NCBI GenBank assembly: GCA_964596065.1
Contig: CAZQSM010000002.1
Location: 10,361 to 74,360 of the forward strand
DNA length: 64,000 nt
Source of the DNA: an uncultured Chlorobiaceae bacterium
GTDB lineage: Bacteria > Bacteroidota > Ignavibacteria > UBA10030 > SZUA-254
Reading direction: 5' to 3'
The first letter of the stretch is position 1, and each line of letters opens with the position of its first letter. A program made the position numbers and the translations under genes. Positions 10,602-52,521 of this stretch are shown here, piece by piece. Below the pieces are notes generated by a model. That model saw only the letters and a program-made list of their open reading frames with translations. It was not told the DNA's origin and made no database searches.

Positions 10602-11272
10602 ATGGTGACTTTGCTTGAAACGATCGGGGGACGAGACTCATTCCGATTCGGCGGATGGTCCCGGAGGGGGGCCCCCGGATCCTGAAGATGATGGAATGCG
10701 AATACCCTACCGGCGGCATGAATGACCGGATGGCGCTGGCGATGATGAAAGCGGCAGAAGCCGCCGTCGGCCTGCGCCCCGGGGGCTCGGTGGTCGAGTA
10801 CACCGGCGGAAGTATCGGGGTGTCCCTCGCCTCCGTCCGCGCCGCGAAGGGGATCCCGGTCCGAATCGTCACCCCGACACCGGCGAGCGGGAAAAAACGC
10901 CACCACATGGCGGCCCTCGGGGCGCGTCTTACTGCGATCGTCAGCAAGGCGGGAGGGACCACCAAGACCCTCACGCTGGAAATGATCGAGACCGCGAGAA
11001 CACTCGCGACCGTACCGGGATCCTGCTGGATGGACCAGCTGACGAATCCCGATCCGATTCCGGCGTATGAGCGGATGGCCGACGAGTCGTGGGATCAGGC
11101 CGGCGCGAACATCGCGATGGCGCGTCGGCTGGCGAGACGCCTCGGTCCCGGGCGCACCGTGGTCACCATCGTGATCGATTCGGGAATGAAGTACCTCAGC
11201 ACAGCGTTGTATTCGCGACCCGACGATGCGACGGAAGCCCGCTCCCTCACAGCCCCGGAGGCGTCCCGATGA
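10602..11272 (+). pseudogene. degraded cysteine-synthase-like (PLP fold type II) gene
   Basis: ATG at 10602 encodes MVTLLETIGG (cysteine synthase N-terminus) and stops after 27 codons. The +2 frame from 10655 continues with PRILKM..PTGGMNDR..VVEYTGGSIGVSLA..KGIPVRIVTP.. and the C-terminal VVTIVIDSGMKYLST. An internal block of roughly 100 aa (glycine loop GTGGT) is absent, the conserved Ser/Thr of SGNTG is Gly, and the length is 205 aa versus about 300. Confidence 0.4.
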
Positions 11273-12876: not shown

Positions 12877-15054
12877 ATGACCCGCACAATACTCGCCTCG
12901 TTCATCCTTCTTCTCTTCTGTTCCCCCGGCGCCCGCGCCCAATCCCCGGCGCCGCCCGACAGCCTGTACGACATCCGGGACAGCGTGCTCATCCCCACGC
13001 GGGACGGGCGCTCCATTTCCGCGACCATTGTCACGAAGAAAGGGGAGCGGGAACCGCGGCCCGCGATTCTCTTCTTCACGACATACGACGAAGGGGCCCG
13101 TGATTCCTTCTTCGGGAAAATCACCGCCGACCGCGGGTACGCGGGAATCGTCGCGTACGCCCGCGGGATCCGGACCAACCTGGACGATTACGTCCCATAC
13201 CTGCGCGACGGCGACGACGCGTATGACGTGATCGACTGGGCGAGCAGGCAGCCATGGTGCGACGGCAGGGTGGGGATGTTCGGGGGAAGCTATACCGGCT
13301 TCGCGCAGTGGTCGACGGCGCGCGATGTCCACCCCGCGTTGAAAACGATCGTCCCGCAGGCCGCGGTGATGCCGGGATTCGACACCCCCATCGAAAACAA
13401 CGTCCCGCAGGGCTTTACCCTCGGCTGGGCGGTCGACATCCTGAAGTATCCGCGACCCGCCGCCGACCTCCAGTGGCGGTGGTATGAGCGGGGGAGCTCC
13501 TACCGCTCGCTCGACTCGCTCGCCGGGCAACCGAACCGGATCTTCCAGGAGTGGCTCAGGCACCCCTCCTACGACGCGTACTGGAGTTCCCTGGCGCCGA
13601 CGCCCGGGGAGTACGAGCGCATCGGCATCCCGATCCTCTGCACCACCGGATATTTCGACGGCGCCCAGCTCGGCGCCCTGCAGTACGTCAAGCAATACTA
13701 CCGGCACAATCCGCAACCGAATCTCTACCTGGTGATCGGGCCCTACGACCACCGGGGGGCCCAGCGGGGGATGCCGTCAGACACGACCGGCGGTTACGCG
13801 ATCGATCCGGTCGCGAAGGTCAGCATGAGGGGCCTGGCGCTCGACTGGTTCGATCATATCCTCAAGGGGAGGGAAAAGCCCGCGATCCTGAAGGACCGGA
13901 TCAACTACCAGGTGATGGGGTCGAACGAGTGGAGGCACGTATCCACCCCCGCCGACATCAGCAACGACACGCTGACGTTCCACCTGAGCGACGCCCGCGC
14001 GGGGGGCGTGTACCTCCTTGCCGCCGCGGGCCCGCCCGCGGGGGGATGGGTCGACCAGTCCGTGGATTTCACCAGGCGCGACGACCAGAACAATTATTTC
14101 ACGCCGTTCATCATCAACGATTCGCTCGACCCGAGCAACGGGCTGGTCTTCGCGACCGAACCCTTCCCCGGGCCGGTCACCGTCAACGGGGGATTTTTCG
14201 GAAACCTCGCCGCGTCGATCAACAAGAAGGACATGGACGTGTCGATCGCCTTCTACGAGCGGACGCCCGACGGAAAATATTTTTACCTCACGAGGTACCT
14301 CGGCCGGGCGAGTTACGCGAAGGACCCGTCGCGAAGGCAGCTCCTGGCCCCCGGGGAGGTCGAGCGGATCCCCGTGCGGGAGACGAGGATGGTGTCGAGG
14401 CGCTTCAGCCGGGGAAGCAGGCTGGTGTGCGTCCTGAACGTCAATAAACACCCGTTCGAGGAGATCAATTACGGGACGGGAAAGGACGTGCACGACGAGA
14501 CCATCGCCGACGCGGGAGCGCCCCTCCGGGTCAGGTGGCTGAACGAGAGCTACCTGAAGGTCCCGGTGTTCTGGGACACGGTGGAGTTCGCGCCGACGAC
14601 CATCTTCATCGTCCGGCACGCCGAAAAGGCCGCCCGGCCCGCGGGGGATCCGCCGTTGCTGGAGGCGGGGGAGAAACGCGCGTCTGACCTGGCGCGGCTG
14701 CTCGGCAGGGCCGGGATCCGGGCCATTTACGCGTCGCAGTACCTCCGCGCGCGGCAGACCGCCGAACCGCTCTCGAAACAGTCGGGCATCCCGATCACCG
14801 TGGTGCCGGTCACGATGAGCCCGATGAATCCGCGCGAACTCTCCCGCGAGTCGATCGACGAGCTGGTGGGGCGCATCCGGCGGCACCCCGGCGAAACCGC
14901 CCTCATCGTCGGGCACAGCAACACGGTGCCCGGGATCATCCGGGCGCTCGGCGGCGACCCCGTGCCCGCCATCGAGGACGCTGACTACGATAATCTCTAT
15001 ATTGTGACGACCGTCGGACGGGGAACGGCGAAGGTCGCGCGGCTGTCGTTCTGA
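12877..15054 (+). CDS. secreted CocE/NonD-family (S15 X-Pro dipeptidyl-peptidase-like) hydrolase fused to a C-terminal histidine-phosphatase (SixA/PGM branch) domain
   Basis: Signal peptide MTRTILASFILLLFCSPGARA. Nucleophile elbow GMFGGSYTG with CocE/NonD architecture over about 550 aa. The last about 170 aa carry IFIVRHAEKA ... LIVGHSNTV (histidine phosphatase RHG/H motifs). Confidence 0.65.
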   Translation: MTRTILASFILLLFCSPGARAQSPAPPDSLYDIRDSVLIPTRDGRSISATIVTKKGEREPRPAILFFTTYDEGARDSFFGKITADRGYAGIVAYARGIRTNLDDYVPYLRDGDDAYDVIDWASRQPWCDGRVGMFGGSYTGFAQWSTARDVHPALKTIVPQAAVMPGFDTPIENNVPQGFTLGWAVDILKYPRPAADLQWRWYERGSSYRSLDSLAGQPNRIFQEWLRHPSYDAYWSSLAPTPGEYERIGIPILCTTGYFDGAQLGALQYVKQYYRHNPQPNLYLVIGPYDHRGAQRGMPSDTTGGYAIDPVAKVSMRGLALDWFDHILKGREKPAILKDRINYQVMGSNEWRHVSTPADISNDTLTFHLSDARAGGVYLLAAAGPPAGGWVDQSVDFTRRDDQNNYFTPFIINDSLDPSNGLVFATEPFPGPVTVNGGFFGNLAASINKKDMDVSIAFYERTPDGKYFYLTRYLGRASYAKDPSRRQLLAPGEVERIPVRETRMVSRRFSRGSRLVCVLNVNKHPFEEINYGTGKDVHDETIADAGAPLRVRWLNESYLKVPVFWDTVEFAPTTIFIVRHAEKAARPAGDPPLLEAGEKRASDLARLLGRAGIRAIYASQYLRARQTAEPLSKQSGIPITVVPVTMSPMNPRELSRESIDELVGRIRRHPGETALIVGHSNTVPGIIRALGGDPVPAIEDADYDNLYIVTTVGRGTAKVARLSF

Positions 15055-15108
15055 CGTTTCCGCCCCGCGCAACCGTCGGACGGTCATCATCACATCGAAG
15101 GGGTGCAC

Positions 15109-16473
15109 ATGAGCGAAGTCGTCACACCGTGGGAAACCATCGGGGAATTGATCGCGGCCGGCAACAGGGTCGCGTTGACGGAGTTCATCGAGTCGTTGAG
15201 TCCGTCCGAGACCGCGAGGGCCATCTCGCGCCTCAACCAGGAGGAGCACCTCGGCCTGCTCCGGATGCTGAGCCCGGAGGACGCGGCGGAGATGATCGAG
15301 GACATCCCGGACGCACAGGCGGCCGACCTGGTCGAGGAGATGACGTCGGAACAGGCGGCGGCGATCATGGAGGAGATGCCGAGCGACCACCTCGTCGACG
15401 TCCTGGGGGAGATGGACGAGGACGCCAGCGAGGCGATCCTCGAGAAAATGGACCGGGAGGACGCAGAAGAAGCCCGGATGCTGCTCGATTACGAGCCGGA
15501 CTGCGCCGGCGGTCTGATGATCCCGGAGTTCCTCTCGTACAGGGACGACCAGACCATCCAGGACGTGCTCGACGACCTGCAGGCCAACAGGAGCCTGTAC
15601 GCCGACTACCTGATCCAGTATTTCTACGTCGTGGACCGGGAGGGGAAACTGACGGGTGTCCTGCGCCTGCAGGACCTCCTGTTTCCCCCGCGAGACACCC
15701 GGCTCTCCCGGATCACGGTCCCCGCGCCCTCTCGCGTGAAGGACACCGCCACGATGCGGGAGCTCGAGGATTTTTTCGACGAACATCCGCTCCTCGGGGC
15801 GCCGGTGGTGACCGGGGAGGGGAAGCTCGTCGGGGTCGTCCTCCCGGGCGCCGTCGAGGCGGCGGTGAACAGGGGAAAGACCAGCAGCCTGCTGCGCCTG
15901 GGCGGCATCATCGGGGGGGAGGAATTCCGGAGCATGCCGCTGGCCTCCCGTTCCGGCCGCCGCCTCTCCTGGCTGAGCATGAACATCGGCCTCAACATCA
16001 TCGCGGCCAGCGTCATCGCCCTCTACCAGGACACGCTCGCCGCCGCGATCACGCTGGCGGTGTTCCTGCCGATGGTCAGCGACATGAGCGGATGTTCGGG
16101 GAACCAGGCGGTGGCCGTTTCGATGCGCGAGCTCTCCCTCGGGCTGGTGAAGCCCGGCGATCTTTTCTGGGTGCTCCGGAAGGAGGCCACGGTCGGGATC
16201 ATCAACGGACTGGTGCTGGGCCTGCTGCTGGCGGGGGTGGCCTTCTTCTGGAAGGGCAACCCCTGGCTCGGGGCCGTCGTCGGCGGGGCGCTCGCGGCGA
16301 ACACGCTCGTCTCGGTCACGCTCGGGGGCATGCTCCCGCTGATGCTCAGGAAACTGAAGCTCGATCCCGCGCTGGTCTCCAGCCCGCTCCTGACCACTGT
16401 CACCGACATGTGCGGATTCTTCTTCGTGCTGAGTTTCGCCTCGGCCGTGCTGGGCAACCTGGGAGGGATCTGA
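15109..16473 (+). CDS. mgtE: magnesium transporter MgtE
   Basis: MgtE_N acidic helical region, CBS pair and the five-TM MgtE channel domain (PMVSDMSGCSGNQA, GFFFVLSFA). RBS GAAGGGG upstream. Confidence 0.8.
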   Translation: MSEVVTPWETIGELIAAGNRVALTEFIESLSPSETARAISRLNQEEHLGLLRMLSPEDAAEMIEDIPDAQAADLVEEMTSEQAAAIMEEMPSDHLVDVLGEMDEDASEAILEKMDREDAEEARMLLDYEPDCAGGLMIPEFLSYRDDQTIQDVLDDLQANRSLYADYLIQYFYVVDREGKLTGVLRLQDLLFPPRDTRLSRITVPAPSRVKDTATMRELEDFFDEHPLLGAPVVTGEGKLVGVVLPGAVEAAVNRGKTSSLLRLGGIIGGEEFRSMPLASRSGRRLSWLSMNIGLNIIAASVIALYQDTLAAAITLAVFLPMVSDMSGCSGNQAVAVSMRELSLGLVKPGDLFWVLRKEATVGIINGLVLGLLLAGVAFFWKGNPWLGAVVGGALAANTLVSVTLGGMLPLMLRKLKLDPALVSSPLLTTVTDMCGFFFVLSFASAVLGNLGGI

Positions 16474-21480: not shown

Positions 21481-23693
21481 TGGAACGGAAGACCATCACG
21501 CTCCCCGTTTCGGGGATGACCTGCGCGAGCTGCGTGACACGCGTGGAGCAATCGGTGAAGAAGGTCGACGGGGTGGACGACGCGAGCGTCAACCTGGCCA
21601 CCGGGAAGGTGCGGTTCACCTACGACCCGTCGAAGACGAACCTGGACGCCATCGCGACGGCCGTCGAAGGGGCGGGGTACTCGCTGGAGACGGCGGCGGA
21701 GGCGGGCGGGGCCCGTAACCCGGTGTCCCCGCAGGACGACGCGTTCCGGAAGCTCAACAGGGATCTCATCCTGAGCGCAGTCCTGAGCGCGCCCGTGATG
21801 TTCGCGAGCATGGCGGCGATGACGGGATGGTTCGCCGCGACGGTCCCGATCGGGACCCGGACCCTCAACACGATACTGTTCCTTCTGACCACCGTGGTGC
21901 TGGCCGGGCCGGGGCGGCGCTTCTTCACCGTCGCCTGGCGGCTCGCCGGCCATTTCACCGCCGATATGAACACCCTCGTCGCGGTCGGGACCGGCACGGC
22001 GTACGCCTACAGTTCCGTCATCACCCTCTTCCCGGACGTGTCCGGCGCCGCGTCGGGGCACGTCTATTTCGACACCGCCGCGAGCATCGTCACGCTCATC
22101 CTCCTCGGGAGGACACTCGAATTCCGCGCGAAGCGCCGCACGTCGGACGCCATCCGGAAACTCGCGGCGCTCCGGCCGGTCAGCGCGCGGGTCGTCCGGG
22201 ACGGCCGCGAGGTGGACGTACCCGCGGGCGAGGTGAGGCCGGGGGACGTCGTCATCGCCAGGCCCGGCGAGCGGCTCGCGGTCGACGGCGTCGTCGAGGG
22301 CGGCGATTCCTCGATCGACGAATCGATGATCACGGGCGAGAGCGTCCCCGCCGACAAGAGAACGGGTGACAGGGTCACCGGCGGCACGGTCAACCTGACC
22401 GGCTCGCTGACATACCGGGCGACGGCGGTGGGCTCCGACACCGTCATCGCCGGCATCATCCGCATGGTGGAGGAGGCGCAGGGCTCGAAGGCGCCGATCC
22501 AGGCGCTCGCGGACAGGATCGCCGCGGTCTTCGTCCCGGTCGTGATCGTGGTCGCAGCGCTGACGTTCCTCGGCTGGATCACACTGGGCGGGGAGGGCTT
22601 CACGCCCGCGATGCTCAAGTTCATCGCGGTCCTGATCATCGCCTGCCCCTGCGCGCTGGGGCTCGCCACCCCCACGGCGATCATGGTCGGCACGGGCGCG
22701 GGCGCCGCGAAGGGGATACTCATCAGGAACGCGGAAAGCCTTGAACGCGCGCACAGGATCAGCGTGGTGGTGCTGGACAAGACCGGCACGCTGACCTCCG
22801 GGCGGCCTTCGGTCACGGGGCTCCTCCCCCTGGCCGGATACGACGGACCCTCCCTGCTCCGCCTCGCGTCGTCGGTCGAATCGCGCTCCGAGCACCCGCT
22901 CGGCGGGGCGGTGGTGGACCACGCGCGGGGCCTCGGCATCGCCCCGCTCCCCGTCGAATCGTTCCGGTCGCTGACCGGGCAGGGGGTAACGGGAGTCGTC
23001 GGCGGGGCCGCGGTGGCGGCGGGCAGTCCGGCACTGATGCGGGAGTTCGCCATCGACACCCGGGAGGCCGACGAGGCCGCGGCCCGGATGCGATCCGGCG
23101 GCCAGACACCGGTCTTCGTCGCGGTGAACGGGTCGCTGGCGGGAGTGGTCGCGGTCGCAGACACGATCAAACCGGGGTCGAGGGATGCGGTCGAAACGCT
23201 GCGCGCGATGAAGATCGAGGTCGTGATGATCACCGGGGACAACGAGCGGACGGCCCGGGCGATCGCGGGGCAGGCGGGGATCGACAGGGTCATCGCGGGC
23301 GTGATGCCGCGGGACAAGGCCGCCCGCATCGCGGAACTCCAGGAGGCGGGGGCGGTCGTGGCGATGGCGGGAGACGGCATCAACGACGCACCGGCGCTCG
23401 CGCGCGCGGACGTCGGCATCGCGATGGGTCAGGGCACCGACATCGCGATGGAAGCCGCGGACATCACGCTGATGGGCGGCGACCTCGCGGGCATCGCCGC
23501 GGCGATACGGTTGTCGAGGAAAACAATCGGCGCGATCAGGCAGAACCTCTTCTGGGCGTTCATTTACAACGTCGTCGGCATTCCCGTCGCCGCGCTCGGC
23601 CTCCTCAACCCGGTCTTTGCCGCCGCGGCGATGGCCCTCAGTTCGGTGAGCGTGGTGTCGAATTCGCTCCGGTTGAAACGCGCGGCGAGGTAA
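21480..23693 (+). CDS. copA: copper-translocating P1B-type ATPase
   Basis: N-terminal HMA (GMTCASCV), CPC transmembrane metal site ([13 protein letters not shown]), DKTGTLT phosphorylation motif, [10 protein letters not shown] hinge. Start overlaps the copZ stop. Confidence 0.9.
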
Positions 23694-23769
23694 GGGAGAC
23701 GCGGAGTGTTGCGCGGCCCGGACCCATCCGCTATATTGTCGGTCGGGAGAACCAGTCAAGGAGCAACGC

Positions 23770-24270
23770 ATGTCGACCGATAGCAGGCCGCAGATCGATC
23801 CCGGAGCCCGGATCGGCCACGTCCACCTCAGGGTGTCGGACCTCCGGCGTTCCCTCGGGTTTTACGAGGGGGTGCTCGGTTTCCGCGTGACGCAGCGGAT
23901 GGGGGAGGGCGCCGCGTTCCTCGCGGCCGGGGGTTATCACCACCACATCGGGCTCAACACGTGGGAGAGCGCCGGCGGAAAACCCCCCGCCCGCGGGACC
24001 ACGGGACTCTATCACATCGCGATCCTCTACCCCGACAGGGCGTCGCTGGCGGCGGCGCTGCGAAGGGTGATCGCGGAGGGCATCCCCCTCGACGGGGCGA
24101 GCGACCATGGCGTGAGCGAGGCGGTCTACCTGCGCGACCCGGACGGCAACGGCGTGGAGCTCTACCGCGACCGGCCGGAGGGCGAGTGGCCCCGGTCGGC
24201 CGACGGGTCGCTCAGGATGACGATCGGCCGCCTCGACCTCGACGCGCTCCTTTCGGAGCCTGCACGATGA
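23770..24270 (+). CDS. VOC-family protein (glyoxalase/extradiol-dioxygenase fold)
   Basis: IGHVHLRVSDLRRSLGFYEGVLGF ... HIAILYPD ... VYLRDPDGNGVELY. Confidence 0.6.
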   Translation: MSTDSRPQIDPGARIGHVHLRVSDLRRSLGFYEGVLGFRVTQRMGEGAAFLAAGGYHHHIGLNTWESAGGKPPARGTTGLYHIAILYPDRASLAAALRRVIAEGIPLDGASDHGVSEAVYLRDPDGNGVELYRDRPEGEWPRSADGSLRMTIGRLDLDALLSEPAR

Positions 24271-24300
24271 CCCCGGAGTCCCGGTGACGACGGCCGCACG

Positions 24301-26100
24301 ATGAGGGTGAACGGCGGGCGCTCCGGCCCGGGCGCATACGCGGTGGCGCTCGGGATGGCGGTCGCTCTCGGGGTGTCGCTGCGCCTCTACCTCCTGCCGT
24401 CGCAGATCCTGCTCGACGACGAATGGCACGGGCTCAACCAGGCGATCGGCGCCTCGTTTTCCGACCTTCTCGGGAGCGACGGCGCGAGGGACAACACCAG
24501 CCTGCCGCTCAATATCTACCATTGGATCCTGCTCCACACCGCCGGATGGACCGAACTCACCATCCGGCTGCCGGTGATCCTCGCCGGGCTCCTCGGCCTC
24601 GTCCTGCTGCCGGGCGCGGCGCGGAGGGCGCTCGGTGAACCGACGGCGCTGATATTCGCCTTCCTGCTGGCGATCGCCCCGTTCGCGATTTTTTACAGCC
24701 GGTTCTCGCGCGCCTACAGCATCGTCCTCCTCCTCGGTTTCCTGGCCCTTTTCTCGGCGCACCGGTGGCTCTCGACGGGGGACCGGCGCGCGGCGCGGGG
24801 ATTCCTTTCGACCGGCACGGTCGCCGCCTACTTCCATCCGTTCGCGGCGATCGTCGTCGTGGCGCCGTTCGCCCTCTATTACGTCCGGGCGATGGCCGGT
24901 CTCATCGGCCTGAAGGCGTGGAAGGGGATCCGGTTCGGGCCGGATCCGCGTGCCGTGCGGCGAACCGGTCTGATTCAGGCGGCGCTGCTCCTTCCCGCGA
25001 TCTGGTCCTGGGCTTCGGCGTCCCCGAATCTTCCCTGGGGGGAGGGGTCGTGGTCGTGGCCGGGGCTGGCGGACGCGCTCGGGCTGCTGGCCGGGTCCTC
25101 CAGTCCCTGGCTCGCCGTACCCTTCTACGGGTTCCTGTCGCTCGGCGGTGTCGCGCTGCGCCGGAAGGCTCCGCTGCTTGCCGGCATCTTCGGGACCGTG
25201 GTCGCGCTGTACATCGCGGCGCTGACCGCAAGCCGGCCCTTCGGGCTCGGGAACGGGGTGGTCGCCCTGCGATACGCCATCGTCCTCGTTCCGATCGGGC
25301 TCGTGTGCGTCGCGGCCGGGATCGACGCGATCCGGGGGCGATTAACGCCGTCCGGAAGCGGGACCCCGGCGACGGGAGCGGACCGGGCCCTCCCGCGTTT
25401 TCTCCGGCCCGGGGCCATCGCGCCGGCCCTCTTCGCCGCGATGATCCTCGCCCTCTTCCTGGGCGGACCGCTTCCCGCGATCTACGCCCCGCCCAATAAC
25501 TTTACGGGTCATTCCGCGTATCAGGGGTCATACGCCCCGCTCGATCCGGAACGCTCCGAGGCGCGGCACGTCTATCCCGGCCATCCGGTGACGGTGTGGG
25601 AAGTACCTGAATACTACCGCATCCTCCGGGGCCGGGGGGATATCGGGACGATCGTCGAATATCCGCTCGACGTGACAAATTACAACAACCTGTTCTATTT
25701 CTATCAACGGGTCCACGGGAAACGAGTCATCGCCGGATATTGCGCGGACGGGAGACTGCTCGGCCACAGGGCGGTACTTCCCCCGGGCGAAGAGGGGATG
25801 GGGCTTCGGCTCGGGATGCTGACCGCGGACCAGATCCTCTCGCACGCGGAGGACCGGCGAAGGCTGGAGTTCGCGAACATGGCCGATGTCACCGATCCGG
25901 CCGCGCTCCGCGCCTCGGGCGCGTCCGCGGTCATCCTCCATAAAACCGTCACGGCGCTCCGGTTCCTGCCGGGAGGCCACGGCACCGTCAGGGTCCGGTA
26001 CCGCTCGGTGCCGGTCATCGCCGGGCGGCTCGCCGCGGCGTTCGGGCCGCCCGTCTATGAAGACGAATCGATCATTTGTTTTGAGATGAAAAAACAGTAA
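24301..26100 (+). CDS. polytopic membrane protein, possibly GT-C glycosyltransferase (ArnT/PMT, GT39/GT83-like)
   Basis: About 11 TM helices in the N-terminal 400 aa followed by a soluble C-terminal domain, an architecture like GT-C transferases. No catalytic motif could be confirmed by eye. Confidence 0.35.
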   Translation: MRVNGGRSGPGAYAVALGMAVALGVSLRLYLLPSQILLDDEWHGLNQAIGASFSDLLGSDGARDNTSLPLNIYHWILLHTAGWTELTIRLPVILAGLLGLVLLPGAARRALGEPTALIFAFLLAIAPFAIFYSRFSRAYSIVLLLGFLALFSAHRWLSTGDRRAARGFLSTGTVAAYFHPFAAIVVVAPFALYYVRAMAGLIGLKAWKGIRFGPDPRAVRRTGLIQAALLLPAIWSWASASPNLPWGEGSWSWPGLADALGLLAGSSSPWLAVPFYGFLSLGGVALRRKAPLLAGIFGTVVALYIAALTASRPFGLGNGVVALRYAIVLVPIGLVCVAAGIDAIRGRLTPSGSGTPATGADRALPRFLRPGAIAPALFAAMILALFLGGPLPAIYAPPNNFTGHSAYQGSYAPLDPERSEARHVYPGHPVTVWEVPEYYRILRGRGDIGTIVEYPLDVTNYNNLFYFYQRVHGKRVIAGYCADGRLLGHRAVLPPGEEGMGLRLGMLTADQILSHAEDRRRLEFANMADVTDPAALRASGASAVILHKTVTALRFLPGGHGTVRVRYRSVPVIAGRLAAAFGPPVYEDESIICFEMKKQ

Positions 26101-26129
26101 CATCATCGTATCACTCATCGGAGGTCCCC

Positions 26130-26828
26130 ATGATCCACCCGGTCGCCGCGTTGTCGCTCCTCTCGTTCCTCACGCTCGTCCCCGGCATCTCCTCCCCGGT
26201 CGCGGGGCAAACATCCGGAACGCGGCCCCCCACGCAGCCGCCCCCTCCGCAATCCCCGGTCGAATATACCTGTCCGCCGTGCGGATGCCGCGGGGACGAC
26301 GCCACGCACAACAGTCCCGGCAACTGCCCAAATTGCGGGATGGAGATGATCGACAAATCGACGACCCTCACGATTTCCGGAATACCCAATTTTTCAAAAC
26401 CGAACGACAGCGTCTGGACGGGGGGACAGCCGACGCTGGCGCAGCTCGAAAAATTGAAGGAAGCGGGGGTGCGGACGGTCATCAACCTTCGCATGCCGGA
26501 AGAGCATGACGGTCATCTCGAAATGGCCCGGGTGAAGGAACTGGGCATGCGGTACGTCAACATCCCGGTCGATTACAGCAGGCCCGACACCGCCGACGTG
26601 ACCGCGTTCCTGCGCGCGACCGACACGACGTTGAACAAGGGCCGGGTGTTCATTCATTGCACGGCCGCGATCAGGGTCGGCGCGTTCTGGATGATCAGGC
26701 GGATCGTCCGCGACGGGGTGGAGGCGGCGCAGGCCCGTGAGGAAGCGAGGACCATCGGCCTCGGGAACCAGCAGTCGTGGGTCGATTTCGCGACGAAGAT
26801 GGCCGGCGCCGGATCGGGGAAACGCTGA
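26130..26828 (+). CDS. secreted heavy-metal-binding-domain (HMBD, YxCPxH/CPxCGM-type) protein fused to DUF442/PTP-like (sulfurtransferase-associated) domain
   Basis: Signal peptide; YTCPPCGCRGDDATHNSPGNCPNCGMEMI resembles the HMBD found in Cu-ATPases; C-terminal TVINLRMPEEH...VFIHCTAAIRVG matches DUF442 (CX4-5R). Confidence 0.5.
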   Translation: MIHPVAALSLLSFLTLVPGISSPVAGQTSGTRPPTQPPPPQSPVEYTCPPCGCRGDDATHNSPGNCPNCGMEMIDKSTTLTISGIPNFSKPNDSVWTGGQPTLAQLEKLKEAGVRTVINLRMPEEHDGHLEMARVKELGMRYVNIPVDYSRPDTADVTAFLRATDTTLNKGRVFIHCTAAIRVGAFWMIRRIVRDGVEAAQAREEARTIGLGNQQSWVDFATKMAGAGSGKR

Positions 26829-28028
26829 ATGAGGAATCCCGTCGCAGGGAGCACGCTCCTCGTCGCCTGGGCCCTGGCGCTGGCGGTCGAATGCCGGGGT
26901 CAGGACCCCGCGAGGGCCATCCCTTCCCCCGCCGCCGCCGGGAGCGCCCAGGCGTCGCTGGCGGTCGGGCCCGACGGCCGCGTCTACCTCAGCTGGATCG
27001 AGCCGGCGGGGGAGAAGCGTCACTCGCTGAAATTTTCGGTGCTCGCCGAATCGTCCTGGTCCGTGCCCCGGACGATCGCGTCGGGAACGGGGTGGTTCGT
27101 CAACTGGGCCGATTTCCCCGCGCTCGCGATCCTCGCCGACGGCTCCATGGCGGCCCACTGGCTGGAGCGGAGCGGGCCCGACGCGTACGCCTACGGCGTC
27201 CGGATCGCCCTCTCGGCGGACGGCGGAAAGAGCTGGTCGGCGCCGGTCACGCCGCACCACGACGGTACGCAGACCGAACACGGGTTCGTGTCGATGTTTC
27301 CGGCCCCGGACGGTTCGCTCGGCGCCGTCTGGCTCGACGGACGGGAGATGTCGGGCGGTGAGGAGGGGCACGGCCACGGGAACATGACGCTCCGGTACAC
27401 GACCATCGCCGCGGGAACGACCCCGGCGGACGGGGTGGTCCTCGACCCAAGGGTGTGCGAATGCTGCCAGACATCGGCAGCGCTGACGGCGGCGGGTCCG
27501 GTCGTGGCGTACCGCGACCGGGACGAAGCCGAGGTGCGCGACATTTCCGTCGTCCGGCTCGCGGGCGGCGCGTGGACTGCGCCCCAAACGGTCGCCGCGG
27601 ACGGGTGGAAGATCGAGGGGTGCCCGGTGAACGGGCCCGCCATCGCGGCGATCGACAGCAGCGTGGCGTTGGCCTGGTTCACGGCCGCCGGCGACACGCC
27701 GAGGGTCTCTCTGGTGTTTTCAGCCGACGCCGGGGCGACGTTCGGCCGCCCGATCCGGATCGACGACGGATCGCCGTCGGGACGGGTGGACGTGATCCTC
27801 CTCGGGGACGGGAGCGCCGTCGTGAGCTGGCTCGAGCGCGTGGCGGGGGCGGGGGAACTCCGGGCGAGGCGCGTCACGGCCGGGGGGACCCGGGCCGCCG
27901 CGACGACCATCGCCCCCTCCGGAACGGCGCGTTCGAGCGGTTTTCCCCGCATGGCGAGGTCGGGAAATGACGTCGTGTTCGCCTGGATCGGCGAGGGCGT
28001 CCTGACCGCGAAGCTCCGGGTGCCCTGA
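26829..28028 (+). CDS. secreted BNR-repeat (sialidase-fold) protein
   Basis: Signal peptide; SxDxGxxW-type BNR motifs (SADGGKSWS, SADAGATF); beta-propeller-like periodicity. Start overlaps the previous stop. Confidence 0.5.
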   Translation: MRNPVAGSTLLVAWALALAVECRGQDPARAIPSPAAAGSAQASLAVGPDGRVYLSWIEPAGEKRHSLKFSVLAESSWSVPRTIASGTGWFVNWADFPALAILADGSMAAHWLERSGPDAYAYGVRIALSADGGKSWSAPVTPHHDGTQTEHGFVSMFPAPDGSLGAVWLDGREMSGGEEGHGHGNMTLRYTTIAAGTTPADGVVLDPRVCECCQTSAALTAAGPVVAYRDRDEAEVRDISVVRLAGGAWTAPQTVAADGWKIEGCPVNGPAIAAIDSSVALAWFTAAGDTPRVSLVFSADAGATFGRPIRIDDGSPSGRVDVILLGDGSAVVSWLERVAGAGELRARRVTAGGTRAAATTIAPSGTARSSGFPRMARSGNDVVFAWIGEGVLTAKLRVP

Positions 28029-28122
28029 CCCTTTGCACACCGCGGAACGCAACTTCGCGGGTCGCCGGTTCGTATAGAGACCGTAGACCTGTTTCCGGCA
28101 ATCATTCGGGGAGGCACGCGCA

Positions 28123-28338
28123 ATGCGCGGATTCACCGCATTCATCGGCTTTTGCGTCCTCATGCTGCTCTGCTGGCCCCTCGCCCTGCTGGCGCTGATA
28201 CTCTATCCGATCGTCTGGATCCTGCTGCTCCCGTTCCGGCTGATCGGGATCACCGTGGACGCCGTCTTCGCGCTCCTGCGCGCCATCCTGATGCTGCCCG
28301 CCCGTCTCCTGGGCTGGAGGAAGGCGCCCGCCCGATGA
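28123..28338 (+). CDS. hypothetical small membrane protein (two TM helices)
   Basis: 71-aa ORF in an otherwise unannotated gap; strongly hydrophobic. Confidence 0.3.
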   Translation: MRGFTAFIGFCVLMLLCWPLALLALILYPIVWILLLPFRLIGITVDAVFALLRAILMLPARLLGWRKAPAR

Positions 28339-28402
28339 CGGAACTGAAGGCCATGCAACACCGCATCACTGACAATCCACATCCATCCGCGGAGAAACCA
28401 CG

Positions 28403-28978
28403 ATGAGCGACACGGAAAAAGCCCTTGCCACACAACTCGAAAACCTCCAGAAACGCTCGGGAAAGACGCTCGCGCAGCTCGAAAAAATCATCCGTTCGAG
28501 CGGGCTCACCAAACACGGCGAGATCCGGGACATGCTGAAGCGGGACCTCGGCATGGGACACGGCGACGCCAACACGCTGGTGCACGTCGTCCTGAAATCG
28601 GACGGGGCGGGCGCCGCGGCCGACTCGGGGCTCCCGGCCGGCGACGTGGTGGCGGGCTTCTACGCCGGGCCGAAGGCGGCCCTCAGGCCGATCCACGACC
28701 TGCTGATGAAGGAGATCTCCGGGTTCGGCGACTTCGAGGTCGCGCCGAAAAAAACCTACGTGAGCCTGCGGAGAAAAAAACAGTTCGCGATGATCGGGCC
28801 GGCCACGAAAACGCAGGTGGAGGTCGGCATCAACACGAAGGGACTCAAGGCGACGGGCCGGCTCGTGGAGAATCCCCCGAACAGCATGTGCCAGTACAGG
28901 GTGAGGATCTCCGACGTGAAGGAGGTGGACCCGACGCTCATCGGCTGGATCAGGCAGGCGTACGAAGGGGCGGGCTAG
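28403..28978 (+). CDS. DUF4287 + DUF5655 domain protein
   Basis: N-terminal KTLAQLEKIIRSSGLTKHGEIRDMLKRDLGMGHGDANTLV (DUF4287); C-terminal FEVAPKKTYVSLRRKKQFAMIGP (DUF5655). Confidence 0.5.
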   Translation: MSDTEKALATQLENLQKRSGKTLAQLEKIIRSSGLTKHGEIRDMLKRDLGMGHGDANTLVHVVLKSDGAGAAADSGLPAGDVVAGFYAGPKAALRPIHDLLMKEISGFGDFEVAPKKTYVSLRRKKQFAMIGPATKTQVEVGINTKGLKATGRLVENPPNSMCQYRVRISDVKEVDPTLIGWIRQAYEGAG

Positions 28979-29052
28979 TTCCCGCCCCGGATGGCAATTC
29001 TCCCCGAAATTCGTTAAATTCCTCCATATTCGTTCCCACACACCGGAATTTG

Positions 29053-30438
29053 ATGAATATCACCGACGTCGACGTTCAATTATTGAGGAAATATTCGGTC
29101 GCCGGGCCCAGGTACACAAGCTACCCGAGCGCGCCCCTCTTCTCCGAAAAATTCCGGTCCGAAGATTACCTCGCCGAAATCCGGGACACCAACCCCGACG
29201 GCCAGGACGCCCCGATTTCGATCTACGTCCACCTCCCCTACTGCGATACCCTCTGTTATTTCTGCGGCTGCACGATGAAAGTCACGCACGACCCGTCGCA
29301 GATCACCGACTACAACCGGTACCTCAAGAAGGAGATCGCGGCGATCGCGCCGCTGGTCTCCCGGTCGCGCCCCGTGGTCCAGCTCCACTGGGGCGGGGGG
29401 ACGCCGTCGTACCTGAGCGCCGACGAGATCAGGGACCTGGGCGCGTTCCTGAAGTCGACGTTCTCCTACGCTCCGGACATCGAAGCCGGCGTGGAGATCG
29501 ATCCGCGCGGCCTGACCCGGGACCGGATGGAAGCGTTCAGGGAATCGGGATTCAACCGTGTGAGCATGGGGGTGCAGGACTTCAATCCCGAGGTGCAGAA
29601 GGCGGTGAACCGCGTCCAGTCGGAGGAGATCACCCGGGACGCCGTGGAGTGGAGCAGGGAGCTGGGATTCCAGAGCATCAACATCGACCTCATCTACGGA
29701 CTCCCCCACCAGTCCGTCGCCCAGTTCGCCGAAACCGTCGACAAGGTGATCGCCCTCTCGCCCGACCGGCTCGCGGTCTTCAATTACGCCCACGTCCCCT
29801 GGCTCAAACCGCACCAGAAGGTGATCGACGACTCGACCCTCCCCTCGCCGGAGGAAAAACTCGGGATTTTCCTGATGACGCTCGGAAAGCTGATCGGGGC
29901 CGGGTACGTCAACATCGGCATGGACCATTTCGCCAAGCCGGACGACGAACTCGCCATCGCCCGCGACAACGGGACGCTCTACAGGAACTTCCAGGGATAT
30001 TCGACCAAGTCGGGATGCGACATGTACGCGTTCGGGATGTCGGCCATCAGCTTCCTTGGAGGGGTGTACCACCAGAACCTGAAATCGATACACGATTATT
30101 TCGGACGGCTCGACGAGGGGAGGCTCCCGACGCACGCCGGTTACCGGATGACGCCCGACGACGTGGTCCGGCGCGAGGTGATCATGCGGATGATGTGCGA
30201 CAACGAGGTGATGAAGGCCGACGTCGGCCGGAAGTTCGGGATCTCGTTCGACGCCTATTTCGCGGACGCGCTGGTGAAACTCCGGCAGTTCACCGGGGAC
30301 GGACTCCTGGAGCTGCACGCGGACAGGATCGTGATCACCCCCCCGGGCAGGCTGATCGTCCGGAACATCGCGATGTGCTTCGACCCCTACCTGGAATCGA
30401 TGCGGAAGGACACGCCCGTCTTCTCGAAGACCGTCTGA
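29053..30438 (+). CDS. hemN: oxygen-independent coproporphyrinogen III oxidase (radical SAM)
   Basis: CxxxCxxC radical-SAM motif YCDTLCYFCGC, GGGTPSYL, and the HemN C-terminal domain. ATG at codon 56 of ORF 28888..; the upstream extension was rejected. Confidence 0.85.
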   Translation: MNITDVDVQLLRKYSVAGPRYTSYPSAPLFSEKFRSEDYLAEIRDTNPDGQDAPISIYVHLPYCDTLCYFCGCTMKVTHDPSQITDYNRYLKKEIAAIAPLVSRSRPVVQLHWGGGTPSYLSADEIRDLGAFLKSTFSYAPDIEAGVEIDPRGLTRDRMEAFRESGFNRVSMGVQDFNPEVQKAVNRVQSEEITRDAVEWSRELGFQSINIDLIYGLPHQSVAQFAETVDKVIALSPDRLAVFNYAHVPWLKPHQKVIDDSTLPSPEEKLGIFLMTLGKLIGAGYVNIGMDHFAKPDDELAIARDNGTLYRNFQGYSTKSGCDMYAFGMSAISFLGGVYHQNLKSIHDYFGRLDEGRLPTHAGYRMTPDDVVRREVIMRMMCDNEVMKADVGRKFGISFDAYFADALVKLRQFTGDGLLELHADRIVITPPGRLIVRNIAMCFDPYLESMRKDTPVFSKTV

Positions 30439-30451
30439 CCGGGAGCGCCCG

Positions 30452-30844
30452 CTATTTTCGGCTCCAGACCATCTGCTCCCGCAACACACCCCTGATCCCC
30501 GTCAGGTCCTCGATCCGCCGGATGTCCCGTATCGCCTCCTCCGCGCTGTCGAACCGGCCGACCCACACCAGAAAGAGCAGCCGTTTTCCATCGATCAGGT
30601 TGTCGTAGATGACCGCGTCGATCCCGTTCGATTTGAGCCGGGAAACGAGATTCTCGGCATTCTCCCGGAGTGAGAACGCGCCCATCTGGACTGCGTAGAC
30701 TGCCATTCGATGTCCGGATGTGTCCATCGTTCGGGGTGCCGAATATATCGCGGGATTGGCAGAGCTGCCCGAGCCGGTGATATCGATCGATGTCAGTATG
30801 ATTGAAACAATAAAAACAAGCGCTGTCAGGAAGAATGTTTTCAT
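30452..30844 (-). CDS. SPOR (peptidoglycan-binding, septal) domain protein with N-terminal membrane anchor
   Basis: YAVQMGAFSLRENAENLVSRLKSNGIDAVI...LFLVWVGRFDSAEEA is a classic SPOR domain. One of only two credible minus-strand genes in the window. Confidence 0.65.
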   Translation of the reverse strand: MKTFFLTALVFIVSIILTSIDITGSGSSANPAIYSAPRTMDTSGHRMAVYAVQMGAFSLRENAENLVSRLKSNGIDAVIYDNLIDGKRLLFLVWVGRFDSAEEAIRDIRRIEDLTGIRGVLREQMVWSRK

Positions 30845-31049
30845 CGTTATCCTCCACGGATTTCCAAAATCAGGGTCGAAATGTAAGTTGATTCATCCAA
30901 AATATCAACTAACGCCCGGAAAACCTTGATTTTTAAGAGAAAATAACATATCCTAGGCCGAAAGCTTTTAAAAACAATCCGATATCCGGGATTTCGATAT
31001 CTGCGCGTGTCCGGTCCGGGAGGGTCGACACCGGGAGGAGGAACAACCA
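30845..31049. promoter_or_regulatory. AT-rich divergent intergenic region (probable back-to-back promoters for the SPOR gene and the coiled-coil receiver gene)
   Basis: About 205 nt with clearly lower GC than the 68-70% background (runs such as TTTTTAAGAGAAAATAACATATCC). Flanked by divergent gene starts. GGGAGGAGG ribosome-binding site precedes ATG 31050. Confidence 0.5.
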
Positions 31050-33323
31050 ATGGCATCATCCAAAGAACACACCCATCTCGAGTTTCGGGGCTTCCTGCGG
31101 CAGGCGGACAAGTTTCTCGCCGAGGCAAGGTTCACTGAGGCGAAGGAGGAGCTTGAAAAAGCAAGGAAGCTCGATCCCGCGAATCCATTCATCCGCGCGT
31201 TCGACGAGCGGATCTCGCTCTTCGAGGTAAAGTCCAAAACCGCCGCCGGAGACGAACAGCCCGTGGGGGGCTCCGGGAGGGACGCGAAACCAGCCGCGCC
31301 ACCCCCCGGCCGCGCCCGCAGCGCCGCAGAAGTCGGGGGGCCGGAGCCGGGCGTCCCGCCGGAGGTGCGGATGGGGGTGGAGGAGGAAATCAGGCGGAAA
31401 TATACCGAGGAGGTGCGGAGAGCCGAGGAACGCGCCGCGAAGCTGGTGGCCGAGGAGAAGGAGCTGCTGGAGAAAAATTTCCTGAAGCAGCGGCTCGAAA
31501 ACGAACGCGAATTCGACAAGGTCAAGCAACGCTACGAAAAGGAATACCAGGAACGGCTCGCCACCGAGATCCGGAAGACGGAGATGCGGCTGGAGGGGGA
31601 ATACCAGTCGGAGCTCGCACGCCTGGAGGGGGACCTGCGCACGAAACTCCACCAGCAGTTCCAGGCCGACCTGGTCGAAGAAAAGGAGCGGTTGAAGAAT
31701 GAACTGCGCGGTCTCGCCGACAAGGAACGGCATTCGGCGGCCGAGATGGAGCAGGGGCTCCGCGCGGCGTTCGAGGCGCGGCTCGCTGAAGAGCTGGAAA
31801 AAGCCGGGATGGAACTCCGGCTGCAGCTGCAGGAAACGCACCGCCGTGAGGAGGAGAAGCTCAAGATCACGCTCACGGAGGAATTTGAAAACCGGCTGAC
31901 CTACGAGCGCGACAAGATGAAGGAAGAGTTCGACAAGCAGCGGAGGAAGGGGGACGACCTCCACCGGATCGAACTCTCAAAGGCGCGCCAGGCACAGGAG
32001 GAACTCGAGAAGAAGATGCGGGACGAGTTCAACCGGAGGCTCCTTGAATCGGTCAGGAAGGCCGAAGTGGTGTACGAAGAACAGGCGGCGCTCCGGCTGA
32101 AGGAGGAGCGGGAAAAACTCAGGCACCAGCTCGAAGGGGAGTTCCGCGCGGAACTCGAGCGTGAACGCAATGCGCTCAGGGTGGAGTACGAAAAACTGAA
32201 GGCGTCGCTCGAAGCCTCCGCCGACGACGAATCCGCCGGGGTCAGGCAGCAGGCGGAGGCGCGGATCCGCGACCAGGTCGACGCGGCGAAAAAGCAGCTC
32301 GAGGAGGAACTCGGGCGCCGGTCGACGGCCCTGCGCAACGAGCTGGAATCGAAGTACCAGATCGAGTACGAGGCGAAGCTCCACGACGAACGGGAGAAGA
32401 TCAGGAAGGACGCCGACCTGAAGATCGAAGCCGAGACGGCGCGCCTCGACGCCGGGTTCCAGGCGAAGATCCGCGAGCAGGAGGAAAAGCTCAAGGCCGT
32501 CCGGAAGGAGCTTCGGGCCAGGATGGACGAGGAGCTGCTCCGGCGGATGGAATCGATGGCGTCCGACTACGAGACGAAACTCGACCTGCTGGGCGTGCGA
32601 CTCCCCGAAACCCGCGCGGAGCAGATGCACCACTACCGGGAGGCGATGCTGGCCCGGTACGCGAAGGGGGCCCTCGACGTGGAGGACGCGAAGAAGCTCC
32701 TCCAGCTGAAGGAAATGCTGGGGCTGACGTTCGACGACCACCTGGTCATCGAGGGCGAAGTGCGGTTGAAAACGTACTCCGACCGGATCCGGCAGCTCGT
32801 CGTCTCGGGCGCCCTGGACCCTGAAGACGAGGTGGCGCTCGGGAAGCTCAAGGAGAAATACGACATCACCGAGGAGGAATCGAAGACGCTCGAACACCAC
32901 CTGCTGGCGAGCTTCGGCAAGCTGCGCGTGAAGGGCCGGCTGATGGTGGCGGACGACGATCAGCTGCTCCTGAGGACCCTCGAGGACATCCTGGGCGACG
33001 CGGGGTATGCCGTGGTCACGGCGCCCGACATCGAAACCGCCATCGCACACCTGAAGACGACGCCGTTCGACCTGATCCTCAGCGACATCAAGTTCTCGGA
33101 CAACGAATTCGAGGGGTTCGCCTTCTTCAAGCAGGTCCAGGGCATCCCGCCGTACGCCGGCATTCCGTTCATCTTCATGAGCGCGCTCTCCGACGGCGTG
33201 ATCGTGAGGTCGGGAATCCAGCTCGGGGTGGACGATTACCTCACCAAGCCGATCGAGCCGGAACTCCTCCTCGCCGTGGTCGAGGGGAAGCTGAAGCGCT
33301 TCCGCGCGATGAAGCTCCAGTGA
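31050..33323 (+). CDS. 757-aa protein: N-terminal TPR-like helix pair, about 550-aa charged coiled-coil, C-terminal response-regulator receiver (REC) domain
   Basis: Residues about 120-600 are a continuous E/K/R/L heptad-like region. The last about 125 aa carry REC signatures: acidic pocket ADDD, phospho-acceptor LILSDIKF, MSALSD, YLTKP. Confidence 0.7.
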   Translation: MASSKEHTHLEFRGFLRQADKFLAEARFTEAKEELEKARKLDPANPFIRAFDERISLFEVKSKTAAGDEQPVGGSGRDAKPAAPPPGRARSAAEVGGPEPGVPPEVRMGVEEEIRRKYTEEVRRAEERAAKLVAEEKELLEKNFLKQRLENEREFDKVKQRYEKEYQERLATEIRKTEMRLEGEYQSELARLEGDLRTKLHQQFQADLVEEKERLKNELRGLADKERHSAAEMEQGLRAAFEARLAEELEKAGMELRLQLQETHRREEEKLKITLTEEFENRLTYERDKMKEEFDKQRRKGDDLHRIELSKARQAQEELEKKMRDEFNRRLLESVRKAEVVYEEQAALRLKEEREKLRHQLEGEFRAELERERNALRVEYEKLKASLEASADDESAGVRQQAEARIRDQVDAAKKQLEEELGRRSTALRNELESKYQIEYEAKLHDEREKIRKDADLKIEAETARLDAGFQAKIREQEEKLKAVRKELRARMDEELLRRMESMASDYETKLDLLGVRLPETRAEQMHHYREAMLARYAKGALDVEDAKKLLQLKEMLGLTFDDHLVIEGEVRLKTYSDRIRQLVVSGALDPEDEVALGKLKEKYDITEEESKTLEHHLLASFGKLRVKGRLMVADDDQLLLRTLEDILGDAGYAVVTAPDIETAIAHLKTTPFDLILSDIKFSDNEFEGFAFFKQVQGIPPYAGIPFIFMSALSDGVIVRSGIQLGVDDYLTKPIEPELLLAVVEGKLKRFRAMKLQ

Positions 33324-36883: not shown

Positions 36884-38082
36884 GTCCGCGGCCCGCCGAT
36901 CCGCTCCTCCGGTGGCGGAAGCGTTTCCCGATCCTCTCCGGCTCCACCTACCTGATTTCGAATTCCCTCGGCGCAATGCCGCGCGACGTCTACGGCGACC
37001 TCCGGGAGTACGCGGACACCTGGGCCTCCCGCGGCGTGAGGGCGTGGAACGAAGGCTGGTGGTCGATGCAGTCGGAGGCCGCCGACGTCGTCGCGGGGCT
37101 GATCGGCGCCCGGCCGGGGAGGCTCACGATGCACGCGAACGTGTCGCTCGTCCAGGCGCAGCTCGTGTCGTCGTTCGATTTCGCCGGGAAGAAACGCGAG
37201 GTGGTCTTCAGCGACCTCGAATTCCCGTCGGTGATGCACGTCTACCGGGAGTTCGCGACGGACCGCGGCGCCAGGGTGGTCGTGAAGCGATCGGGAGGCT
37301 CGGCCGCGAACGCCCAGCAGATGGTGTACGACGCGATCAACGAGAAGACGAGGGTCGTCCCGGTCTCGCACGTCTTCTTCCGGAACGGGGAGATCCAGGA
37401 CGTCCGGGAGATCGTCCGGAAGGCGCATCGCTGGGGCGCGGCGGTGGTCCTCGACGCGTACCACTCCGTCGGCATCATCCCCGTCGACGTGGCGGCGCTC
37501 GGCGTCGACGCGCTGGTCGGCGGCGTGTTGAAATGGCTCTGCGGCGGACCGGGCGGGGCGTTCCTCTGGGTGCGGCCGTCCCTCCTGAAGACGCTGAAAC
37601 CGAAAGTCACCGGGTGGATGGCCCACCGGTCGCCGTTCGCCTTCCTCCCCGCGATGGAATACGCACAGGGCACGCACCGGATGCTCTCGGGGACGCCGCC
37701 GGTGAGCGTTTTCTACGCGATGCGTTCCGGCCCCGCGATCATCGCGTCGGCGGGGATCGGGAAGGTCCGGGCGAAGTCGATGCGCCAGACCGCGCTGATC
37801 GCGGGGGCGGCCGCGCGGCTCGGGTACCGGATGGTCAGCCCGTCCGATCCGGAGCGACGGGGCGGGGCCGTCACGCTGGACGTTCCGCACGCCTTCCAGG
37901 TGGCCCGCGAACTCCTCAGGAGGGAGATCATCGTCGACTTCCGCGAAGGCTCGGGCATCCGGATCGCCCCCCACTTCTATAATTCCGACGCCGAGGTGCT
38001 CCTCGCGCTGACCGAGATCGGGGATATCCTCCGCTCGGGGGCCTGGCGCCGGCATTCCTCCCGGAGGACACAGGTCACCTGA
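36880..38082 (+). CDS. kynU: kynureninase (PLP-dependent, aminotransferase class V fold)
   Basis: TYLISNSLGAMP, WASRGVRAWNEGWW, KWLCGGPGGAFLWV and TGWMAH blocks align with kynureninase signature regions. ATG overlaps the amidohydrolase stop (ATGA). Confidence 0.75.
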   Translation: MSPRPADPLLRWRKRFPILSGSTYLISNSLGAMPRDVYGDLREYADTWASRGVRAWNEGWWSMQSEAADVVAGLIGARPGRLTMHANVSLVQAQLVSSFDFAGKKREVVFSDLEFPSVMHVYREFATDRGARVVVKRSGGSAANAQQMVYDAINEKTRVVPVSHVFFRNGEIQDVREIVRKAHRWGAAVVLDAYHSVGIIPVDVAALGVDALVGGVLKWLCGGPGGAFLWVRPSLLKTLKPKVTGWMAHRSPFAFLPAMEYAQGTHRMLSGTPPVSVFYAMRSGPAIIASAGIGKVRAKSMRQTALIAGAAARLGYRMVSPSDPERRGGAVTLDVPHAFQVARELLRREIIVDFREGSGIRIAPHFYNSDAEVLLALTEIGDILRSGAWRRHSSRRTQVT

Positions 38083-38189
38083 GGCACGCGCCGGACGCCA
38101 CCGCCCGGCCGGGGCGCCACCGCCACACCCGGGCCCCATCACGCGCCCGTCCCGCTTGTGTCTCATCGGCCGGTGAGGTATATTTTTCA

Positions 38190-39631: not shown

Positions 39632-39632
39632 G

Positions 39633-52138: not shown

Positions 52139-52139
52139 C

Positions 52140-52424: not shown

Positions 52425-52521
52425 AAAAAGTCCGTTATCCGGCCCGTTTTGGCATGTTTAAGCGCCCGGGAGGATGTTTCGGCGGAGATCCCAACTTTTT
52501 CCCTGATCGCCTGTACTTCCA

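Follow-up and report, generated by a model that had tools for sequence, protein, structure and literature searches.

What might a bacterium gain from carrying, in a single polypeptide, a serine hydrolase and a histidine phosphatase that are normally made as separate proteins? The question is raised by a gene in a stretch of 64,000 nucleotides (hereafter the window) taken from an uncultured Chlorobiaceae bacterium (assembly GCA_964596065.1, contig CAZQSM010000002.1, positions 10,361 to 74,360). The gene lies at positions 12877..15054 of the forward (+) strand, as do all window genes and gene features located below, and a preliminary description of the window had delimited it exactly. It comprises 725 codons and a stop, with an ATG start and no internal stop codon; a protein identical to the 725-residue product is on record as P0001, from an NCBI assembly in which it lies on a 99-kb contig. 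We consider it probable that this gene is a genuine, lineage-specific fusion that encodes an exported bifunctional enzyme. Both component enzyme families are already known; it is their combination that is new and very rare.

Three segments follow one another along the protein. Residues 1-21 (MTRTILASFILLLFCSPGARA, then QS; 12877..12939) are predicted from sequence features to form a Sec signal peptide. Residues 23-570 (12943..14586) make up a CocE/NonD hydrolase module, an alpha/beta-hydrolase followed by a C-terminal beta-sandwich, as delimited by hidden Markov models and a structure model. Residues 571-725 (14587..15051) constitute a histidine phosphatase module of SixA size (155 amino acids), recognized by PF00300 and by an AlphaFold2 (AF2) domain model. 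The Pfam matches are Peptidase_S15 (PF02129) over residues 43-292 (E 3.9e-34, 119 bits against a cut-off of 23), PepX_C (PF08530) over residues 378-520 (25 bits, cut-off 22.5) and His_Phos_1 (PF00300) over residues 576-643 (E 1.5e-15, 57.9 bits, gathering cut-off 21.7), and the NCBIfam model TIGR00976 (CocE_NonD) spans residues 40-544 with 164.8 bits against a curated cut-off of 66.3. Together with the uninterrupted open reading frame (ORF), these matches bear out the single-polypeptide fusion of a CocE/NonD hydrolase with a SixA-sized phosphatase that had been proposed. The two domains are confirmed by the profile searches; only the boundary had been set slightly early, at residues 555-560, and falls instead at about residues 566-571. 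Neither domain has a second copy in the window, no two-domain match to the fusion was found in the PDB, and our literature search returned no paper that combines CocE/NonD with 'histidine phosphatase'.

How rare is the combination, and is it real? A full-length search of 5.8 billion protein clusters returned the window's own P0001 and one further fusion, P0002, which is 82% identical to the window protein and comes from assembly GCA_964517655.1 (locus L001). The remaining 118 of the 120 best hydrolase matches are unfused proteins of 517-614 amino acids, most of them of about 565, and all of the 120 best matches to the phosphatase domain are single-domain proteins, which agrees with the view that the two catalytic folds normally occur apart. 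The phosphatase-domain search omitted P0001 and P0002 despite their 100% and approximately 80% identical domains, so that domain-level searches can miss multi-domain carriers. A chimeric query spanning the junction, run against 1.84 billion representatives, yielded one extra case, the fragment P0241, which reads through the same junction ('PVFRETEAFRPATVFLVRHAEK'). Over 2.5 kb its contig (L094/L095) is collinear with L001, the nucleotide identity being 83%, and it continues into an MgtE gene. The fusion is thus conserved in relatives, with the same junction in L001 and in L094/L095, in one narrow lineage only.

Two genes joined by a sequencing or assembly error, or by a missed frameshift, could give the same appearance, and one of the three datasets, L094/L095, does combine roughly 1x coverage with many indels. 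However, three datasets that were assembled independently and differ by some 17% at the nucleotide level share a homologous, in-frame junction, both complete genes have exactly 725 codons, and the signal peptide of the phosphatase is missing from the DNA itself and has not simply shifted into another frame. The preliminary description had singled out a missed stop or frameshift at the junction as the finding that would split the gene in two; none was found. An artefact is excluded because the same junction recurs in independent datasets: this explanation is effectively refuted, and we give it hardly any credence. Between the window and L001, the ratio of nonsynonymous to synonymous substitution rates (dN/dS) amounts to 0.149 in the hydrolase half and 0.257 in the phosphatase half, with a dS of about 0.5-0.6. 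Because of these low ratios, both halves are seen to be under purifying selection and to have been kept functional since the fusion.

The L094/L095 sequence itself (ENA ERZ2470813 and ERZ1300416; 2521 nucleotides, about 1.1x coverage) shows the fused locus broken up into four or more short ORFs, and aligning it to L001 takes 28 gap openings. This breakage is probably due to read errors, although the contig may also represent a decaying pseudogene copy.

Where did the two genes meet? The junction (residues 566-575, WDTVE/FAPTT; 14572..14601) was located from the ends of unfused hydrolases and the start of the phosphatase core, and it contains no linker. Unfused hydrolases end in PVWRDxE followed by the stop codon, a C-terminus that corresponds to residues 563-570 of the fusion; stand-alone phosphatases have a conserved core that starts with [DE]-F-K-V-T-T, a point reached in the fusion at F571. 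A contig of 1.15 kb, L009, carries the closest stand-alone phosphatase (P0121, 76% identical to that of the window) and, directly upstream of it, the 3' end of a CocE/NonD gene whose product is 81.5% identical to the window's. For other unfused hydrolases, identity over the corresponding 119 residues is about 72% at most, and over the full length 70%. In L009, the stop codon of the hydrolase overlaps the start codon of the phosphatase (ATGA). P0121 (221 amino acids) begins with 65 residues of its own that include a hydrophobic stretch; for this reason the alternative that it is a truncated fusion was rejected, and the protein is regarded as a complete stand-alone phosphatase.

Removing nucleotides 376-569 of L009 in silico (194 nucleotides, from the stop codon through phosphatase codon 65) creates an in-frame junction, in which the last hydrolase codon is followed by A-F-K-V-T-T, and reproduces the fused arrangement precisely: the natural junctions read PVFRETE/AFRPTT in L001 and PVFWDTVE/FAPTT in the window. 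Among themselves, the three fused sequences are 88-90% identical in the hydrolase C-terminus and about 80% in the phosphatase; against L009 the corresponding values are 76-81% and 76%, and L009 is closer to the fused trio than to other unfused proteins. We may hypothesize that the ancestor carried a signal-peptide-bearing CocE/NonD gene directly upstream of a gene for an exported SixA-like phosphatase, with overlapping stop and start codons, an arrangement that L009 still displays. A deletion of approximately 194 nucleotides would then have removed the hydrolase stop and the first 65 or so phosphatase codons, including the phosphatase's own signal peptide, leaving the entire hydrolase in frame with the mature core of the phosphatase. 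The phosphatase would now be exported only as a passenger of the hydrolase signal peptide, in 1:1 stoichiometry. Adjacency followed by a single deletion is the most parsimonious route, and the fusion would be explained mechanically, because a small deletion between adjacent genes would also have removed the phosphatase signal peptide. In this respect, the fusion combines a narrow distribution with an ordinary mechanism.

What kind of hydrolase was involved? Among solved structures it is closest to cocaine esterase (CocE; 1ju3, E 3.4e-27); an archaeal S15 aminopeptidase and the alpha-amino-acid ester hydrolases (AEHs) come next. The full-length AF2 model superposes on CocE with a template modelling score (TMt) of 0.69-0.74 and on AEHs with a TMt of about 0.7, and it displays the three-domain fold of the family (alpha/beta-hydrolase, helical insert, C-terminal jelly-roll). 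The Rhodococcus CocE has the same fold order, an alpha/beta-hydrolase with helical insertions and then a beta-sandwich, and its Ser/Asp/His triad and two oxyanion-hole tyrosines all align with the fusion hydrolase. The nucleophile Ser138 (motif GGSYTG, codon 13288..13290) aligns with the Ser of CocE GVSYLG, which we take to be Ser117; Asp261 (GYFDG, 13657..13659) aligns with the Asp of GWYDG and His292 (GPYDH, 13750..13752) with the His of GPWSH, while Tyr70 and Tyr139 occupy the positions of the oxyanion-hole tyrosines. S138, D261, H292, Y70 and Y139 are invariant among 32 homologs. The two enzymes differ in that identity is only about 21-25% and that the fusion adds a signal peptide and a C-terminal phosphatase domain; CocE is a cytoplasmic enzyme.

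The hydrolase belongs to a clade of tightly conserved proteins of about 565 amino acids (56-70% identity) from Acidobacteriota and Bacteroidota, which their sources label only as 'CocE/NonD family hydrolase'. The PepX equivalog models NF003780 and NF003781 score far below their cut-offs (27.2 bits against 642, and 13.1 bits against 881), and the match to the PepX model is confined to a 40-residue stretch around the nucleophile. By these alignments and profile matches, then, the hydrolase is placed in the CocE/NonD family and peptidase activity is not established. The earlier label of 'S15 peptidase/esterase' holds for the alpha/beta-hydrolase family; the 'peptidase' part goes beyond the evidence, with cocaine esterase, an esterase, as the nearest solved structure and the PepX models far below cut-off. 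In AEHs, a carboxylate cluster that follows the catalytic Asp binds the alpha-amino group of the substrate. The fusion reads D261-G-A-Q at this point, resembling the D-G-F of CocE, which may serve as a lead. Furthermore, AEH chains match the hydrolase less well than CocE does (E of about 1e-12 to 1e-13 against 3e-27).

The phosphatase half belongs to branch 1 of the histidine phosphatase superfamily and is of SixA size. Residues 571-725 are 54-76% identical to stand-alone proteins of 170-220 amino acids, mostly from Blastocatellia, Pyrinomonadaceae and other Acidobacteriota, and a scan of metagenome contigs with the domain added two distant relatives only, at 39-40% identity. The catalytic His and Arg, whose absence had been named as a reason to abandon the assignment, are present and align with PhoE: Arg580-His581 (motif RHAEK, the family version of RHG; 14614..14619) with the RH of PhoE RHGET, Arg624 (YLRARQTAEP, 14746..14748) with the Arg of SGRALETAE, and the second active-site histidine, His680 (VGHSNT, 14914..14916), with the His of IVTHG. 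R580-H581, R624 and H680 are invariant in the family. The AF2 model of the isolated domain has a predicted local distance difference test score (pLDDT) of 78.9, and its 50 listed PDB matches are all histidine-phosphatase or phosphoglycerate mutase (PGM) family members or uncharacterised proteins (probability 1.00, TMq 0.5-0.7). The best of them is the C-terminal domain of mycobacterial MutT1 (5gg9, Foldseek E 1.1e-6), followed by a putative SixA, PGAM5, PhoE and RosC.

Could the phosphatase nevertheless be a passenger that lacks catalysis or is in decay, perhaps kept for binding or regulation or produced by accidental read-through, with the hydrolase as the only functional half? Its dN/dS is higher than that of the hydrolase (0.257 against 0.149), its motif is RHA instead of the canonical RHG, and the fusion is very rare. 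However, RHAEK is invariant across the stand-alone family, being found in 23 members, and is therefore a family trait and not a sign of decay. The invariant family motifs are RHAEK, DPPL, SQ..R..TAEP and VGH.NT.P, and the fused copy keeps every one of these positions. A dN/dS of 0.26 at a dS of about 0.5 indicates clear purifying selection, and the domain model takes the histidine-phosphatase fold. We thus hold a passenger role to be very improbable, and the conserved residues of both active sites suggest that both domains are catalytically active.

Closest to the fused domain in sequence are stand-alone SixA-like phosphatases of Acidobacteriota such as P0121, P0122 and P0135, which share 54-76% identity over the 155-residue core and the same invariant motifs. 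They carry an N-terminal segment of their own; in the fusion, the whole hydrolase takes its place. Their source labels read 'phosphohistidine phosphatase SixA', 'PhoE' or 'phosphoglycerate mutase family'. E. coli SixA has the same minimal fold of about 155 residues, with Arg-His, Arg and His in the same order, and an Agrobacterium putative SixA (2rfl) is among the structural matches. Nevertheless, the SixA equivalog model TIGR00249 gives only 28.3 bits against a cut-off of 74.5. SixA (on ArcB, NPr and Ndk) and the MutT1 C-terminal domain (on sensor histidine kinases) act on cytoplasmic phospho-histidine proteins (PMC12407098), which would be out of reach for an exported enzyme. The location also appears to differ from that of SixA: the stand-alone relatives have signal-peptide-like N-termini and the fused copy stands behind a hydrolase predicted to be exported. 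Because the known SixA and MutT1 substrates are cytoplasmic, the 'SixA' annotation that has spread over this exported family is probably wrong as to function. Soil metagenomic libraries screened for phosphatase activity have yielded signal-peptide-bearing proteins of the histidine phosphatase family (PMC6355987); these proteins, which may belong to another subfamily, offer a general precedent for phosphorus scavenging.

Does the enzyme leave the cytoplasm, as its description as a secreted protein had it? At the N-terminus of the fusion, a basic residue precedes a hydrophobic stretch (Kyte-Doolittle mean over 12 residues, 2.72), after which an A-x-A stands before Q; close homologs of the hydrolase, whose N-termini are similarly patterned, all keep A19, A21 and Q22. 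This combination of basic residue, hydrophobic stretch and conserved A-x-A-Q is Sec-signal-like and makes export to the periplasm or to the exterior likely. As for the phosphatase, 19 of 22 stand-alone proteins have a strongly hydrophobic stretch after basic residues, upstream of the conserved core, and the other three appear to be N-terminally short. The segments are signal-peptide-like and 35-65 residues long. From the hydrophobic N-termini of these 19 members, we take the stand-alone family to be exported or membrane-anchored in its own right. A hydrophobic stretch of the signal type is absent at the fusion junction.

What the fusion is for may then be asked of two enzymes that would both work outside the cytoplasm. 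We infer that its benefit lies in the co-export and co-localisation of two scavenging hydrolases, one acting on esters or amides and the other on phosphomonoesters, and not in an obligatory hand-over of substrate. Mycobacterial MutT1 offers a parallel: as in the fusion, a hydrolase is N-terminal to a SixA-sized histidine phosphatase. It differs in that the partner is a Nudix hydrolase, that the protein is cytoplasmic and that identity is about 20%.

The preliminary description had gone further and suggested sequential processing of a phosphorylated substrate. In such a scheme both domains would share a single class of extracytoplasmic phosphorylated substrate and the fusion would have been selected for hand-over, either with the phosphatase unblocking a peptide or ester for the serine hydrolase or with the hydrolase releasing a phospho-compound for the phosphatase. 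Several observations speak for it: the genes were translationally coupled before the fusion, as seen in the ATGA overlap of L009; the fusion has persisted, and purifying selection has acted on both active sites; the domains, having no linker, must pack closely; and the phosphatase family recurs in fusion with other hydrolase types, namely Peptidase_S41 (P0352), Amidohydro_1 (P0259, in the order Amidohydro_1 and His_Phos) and a weak, sub-threshold Emfourin-like match (P0274). Other architectures of the family are CarboxypepD_reg with tandem His_Phos, and His_Phos with SnoaL. Each of these alternative architectures, however, is a candidate known from a single cluster representative, in which truncation or an assembly error may play a part. 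The multi-domain carriers listed in our survey are P0352, P0259, P0264, P0265, P0295, P0273 and P0274.

Gene neighbourhoods argue in the other direction. A CocE/NonD gene was found within 3 kb of the phosphatase in none of 80 species-representative loci, and a phosphatase beside the unfused hydrolase in none of five hydrolase loci; the two genes are linked in a single narrow lineage only. Across 83 phosphatase loci no neighbour is enriched among the flanking genes: on the upstream side the top families are present in 4 of 68 loci, on the downstream side in 3 of 62. In addition, the domains of MutT1, itself a fusion of a hydrolase with a SixA-like phosphatase, have separate substrates (PMC12407098). 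Evidence for functional coupling of the two domains is weak, and nothing stronger than the fusion itself supports sequential processing of one phosphorylated substrate; we regard such processing as unlikely. A broader proposal, in which the fusion would be a Rosetta-stone marker of an unrecognised extracytoplasmic partnership, with the phosphatase stripping phosphate from peptides or esters whose degradation serine or metallo-hydrolases would then complete, appears to us more doubtful still, though less so than a passenger role for the phosphatase. Hints in its favour come from the translational coupling in L009 and from the Peptidase_S41, amidohydrolase and Emfourin-like fusions of the phosphatase family.

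Two minor observations concern these neighbourhoods. The 170-residue gene downstream of the unfused hydrolase P0004 (L002) was considered as a cryptic phosphatase and rejected for want of any relationship (BLASTP E 0.35). In L010, the hydrolase has a DUF5655/DUF1801 gene on its upstream side (1088-1501), and one also occurs a few genes upstream of the fusion in L001 (5203-5595); DUF1801 is the commonest upstream neighbour of stand-alone phosphatases, yet it occurs in 4 of 68 loci, and the recurrence is probably a coincidence.

Several points weigh against our preferred reading of an exported bifunctional enzyme whose benefit is co-export. The hydrolase is only about 21-25% identical to any characterised enzyme, and export is deduced from features of the primary structure. 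In the full-length model, which was built from an alignment (A5) that rests on two sequences in its phosphatase part, this part has a low-confidence pLDDT of 50-75, and the inter-domain geometry cannot be derived from it. That the direction was fusion and not fission is an argument from parsimony, in which L009 figures as a single contig of 1.15 kb. Finally, the ATGA overlap in L009 implies co-expression before the fusion and, together with the other hydrolase-type fusions, fits a functional partnership better than mere co-localisation. Co-export nonetheless remains the interpretation that we favour.

Both halves come from large, conserved and biochemically uncharacterised exported clades, common among the Acidobacteriota and Bacteroidota of soils and sediments, and a natural fusion caught together with its putative unfused precursor would provide a cheap experimental handle on both. 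One construct could probe a general phosphomonoesterase role in phosphorus scavenging as well as cooperation with a CocE/NonD hydrolase. Were the partnership proposal to prove true, it would assign a role to a widespread family that now bears the wrong label 'SixA', as well as to a large clade of exported CocE/NonD proteins.

In what surroundings did the gene settle? The order around it is an isochorismatase-family gene, a short PALP ORF, an NAD-binding/DUF2867 gene, the fusion, MgtE, an alpha/beta-hydrolase and an HGSNAT-like gene. The magnesium-transporter gene (15103..16473; Pfam MgtE_N, CBS and MgtE) is a syntenic neighbour; the corresponding database protein has 454 amino acids, and the real start is probably the ATG at 15109. 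MgtE is also found downstream of the fusion in L001 and in L094, and the HGSNAT-like gene also downstream in L001. The nearest named relatives of MgtE, at 74-78% identity, are from metagenome-assembled genomes (MAGs) of Desulfobacterales, Thermodesulfobacteriota or Pseudomonadota, unlike both halves of the fusion, which are nearest to Acidobacteriota proteins. It is possible that the hydrolase-phosphatase pair was horizontally acquired; the mismatch could also stem from unreliable MAG names, and GC content shows no local difference (0.66). Rfam and tRNA scans revealed no RNA gene in the window, and promoter and terminator scans around the locus gave nothing informative.

Elsewhere in the window, the GC content of 2-kb blocks varies from about 0.60 to about 0.71, with 22001-28000 and 38001-40000 contrasting with 28001-32000 and 52001-54000; these blocks are possibly compositional islands unrelated to the fusion. 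The short PALP ORF upstream of the fusion (10655-11272, 205 amino acids) matches only positions 24-158 of the 295-position PALP profile and is overlapped by the next ORF, so that it looks like the remnant of a truncated or frameshifted gene for a pyridoxal-phosphate (PLP) enzyme.

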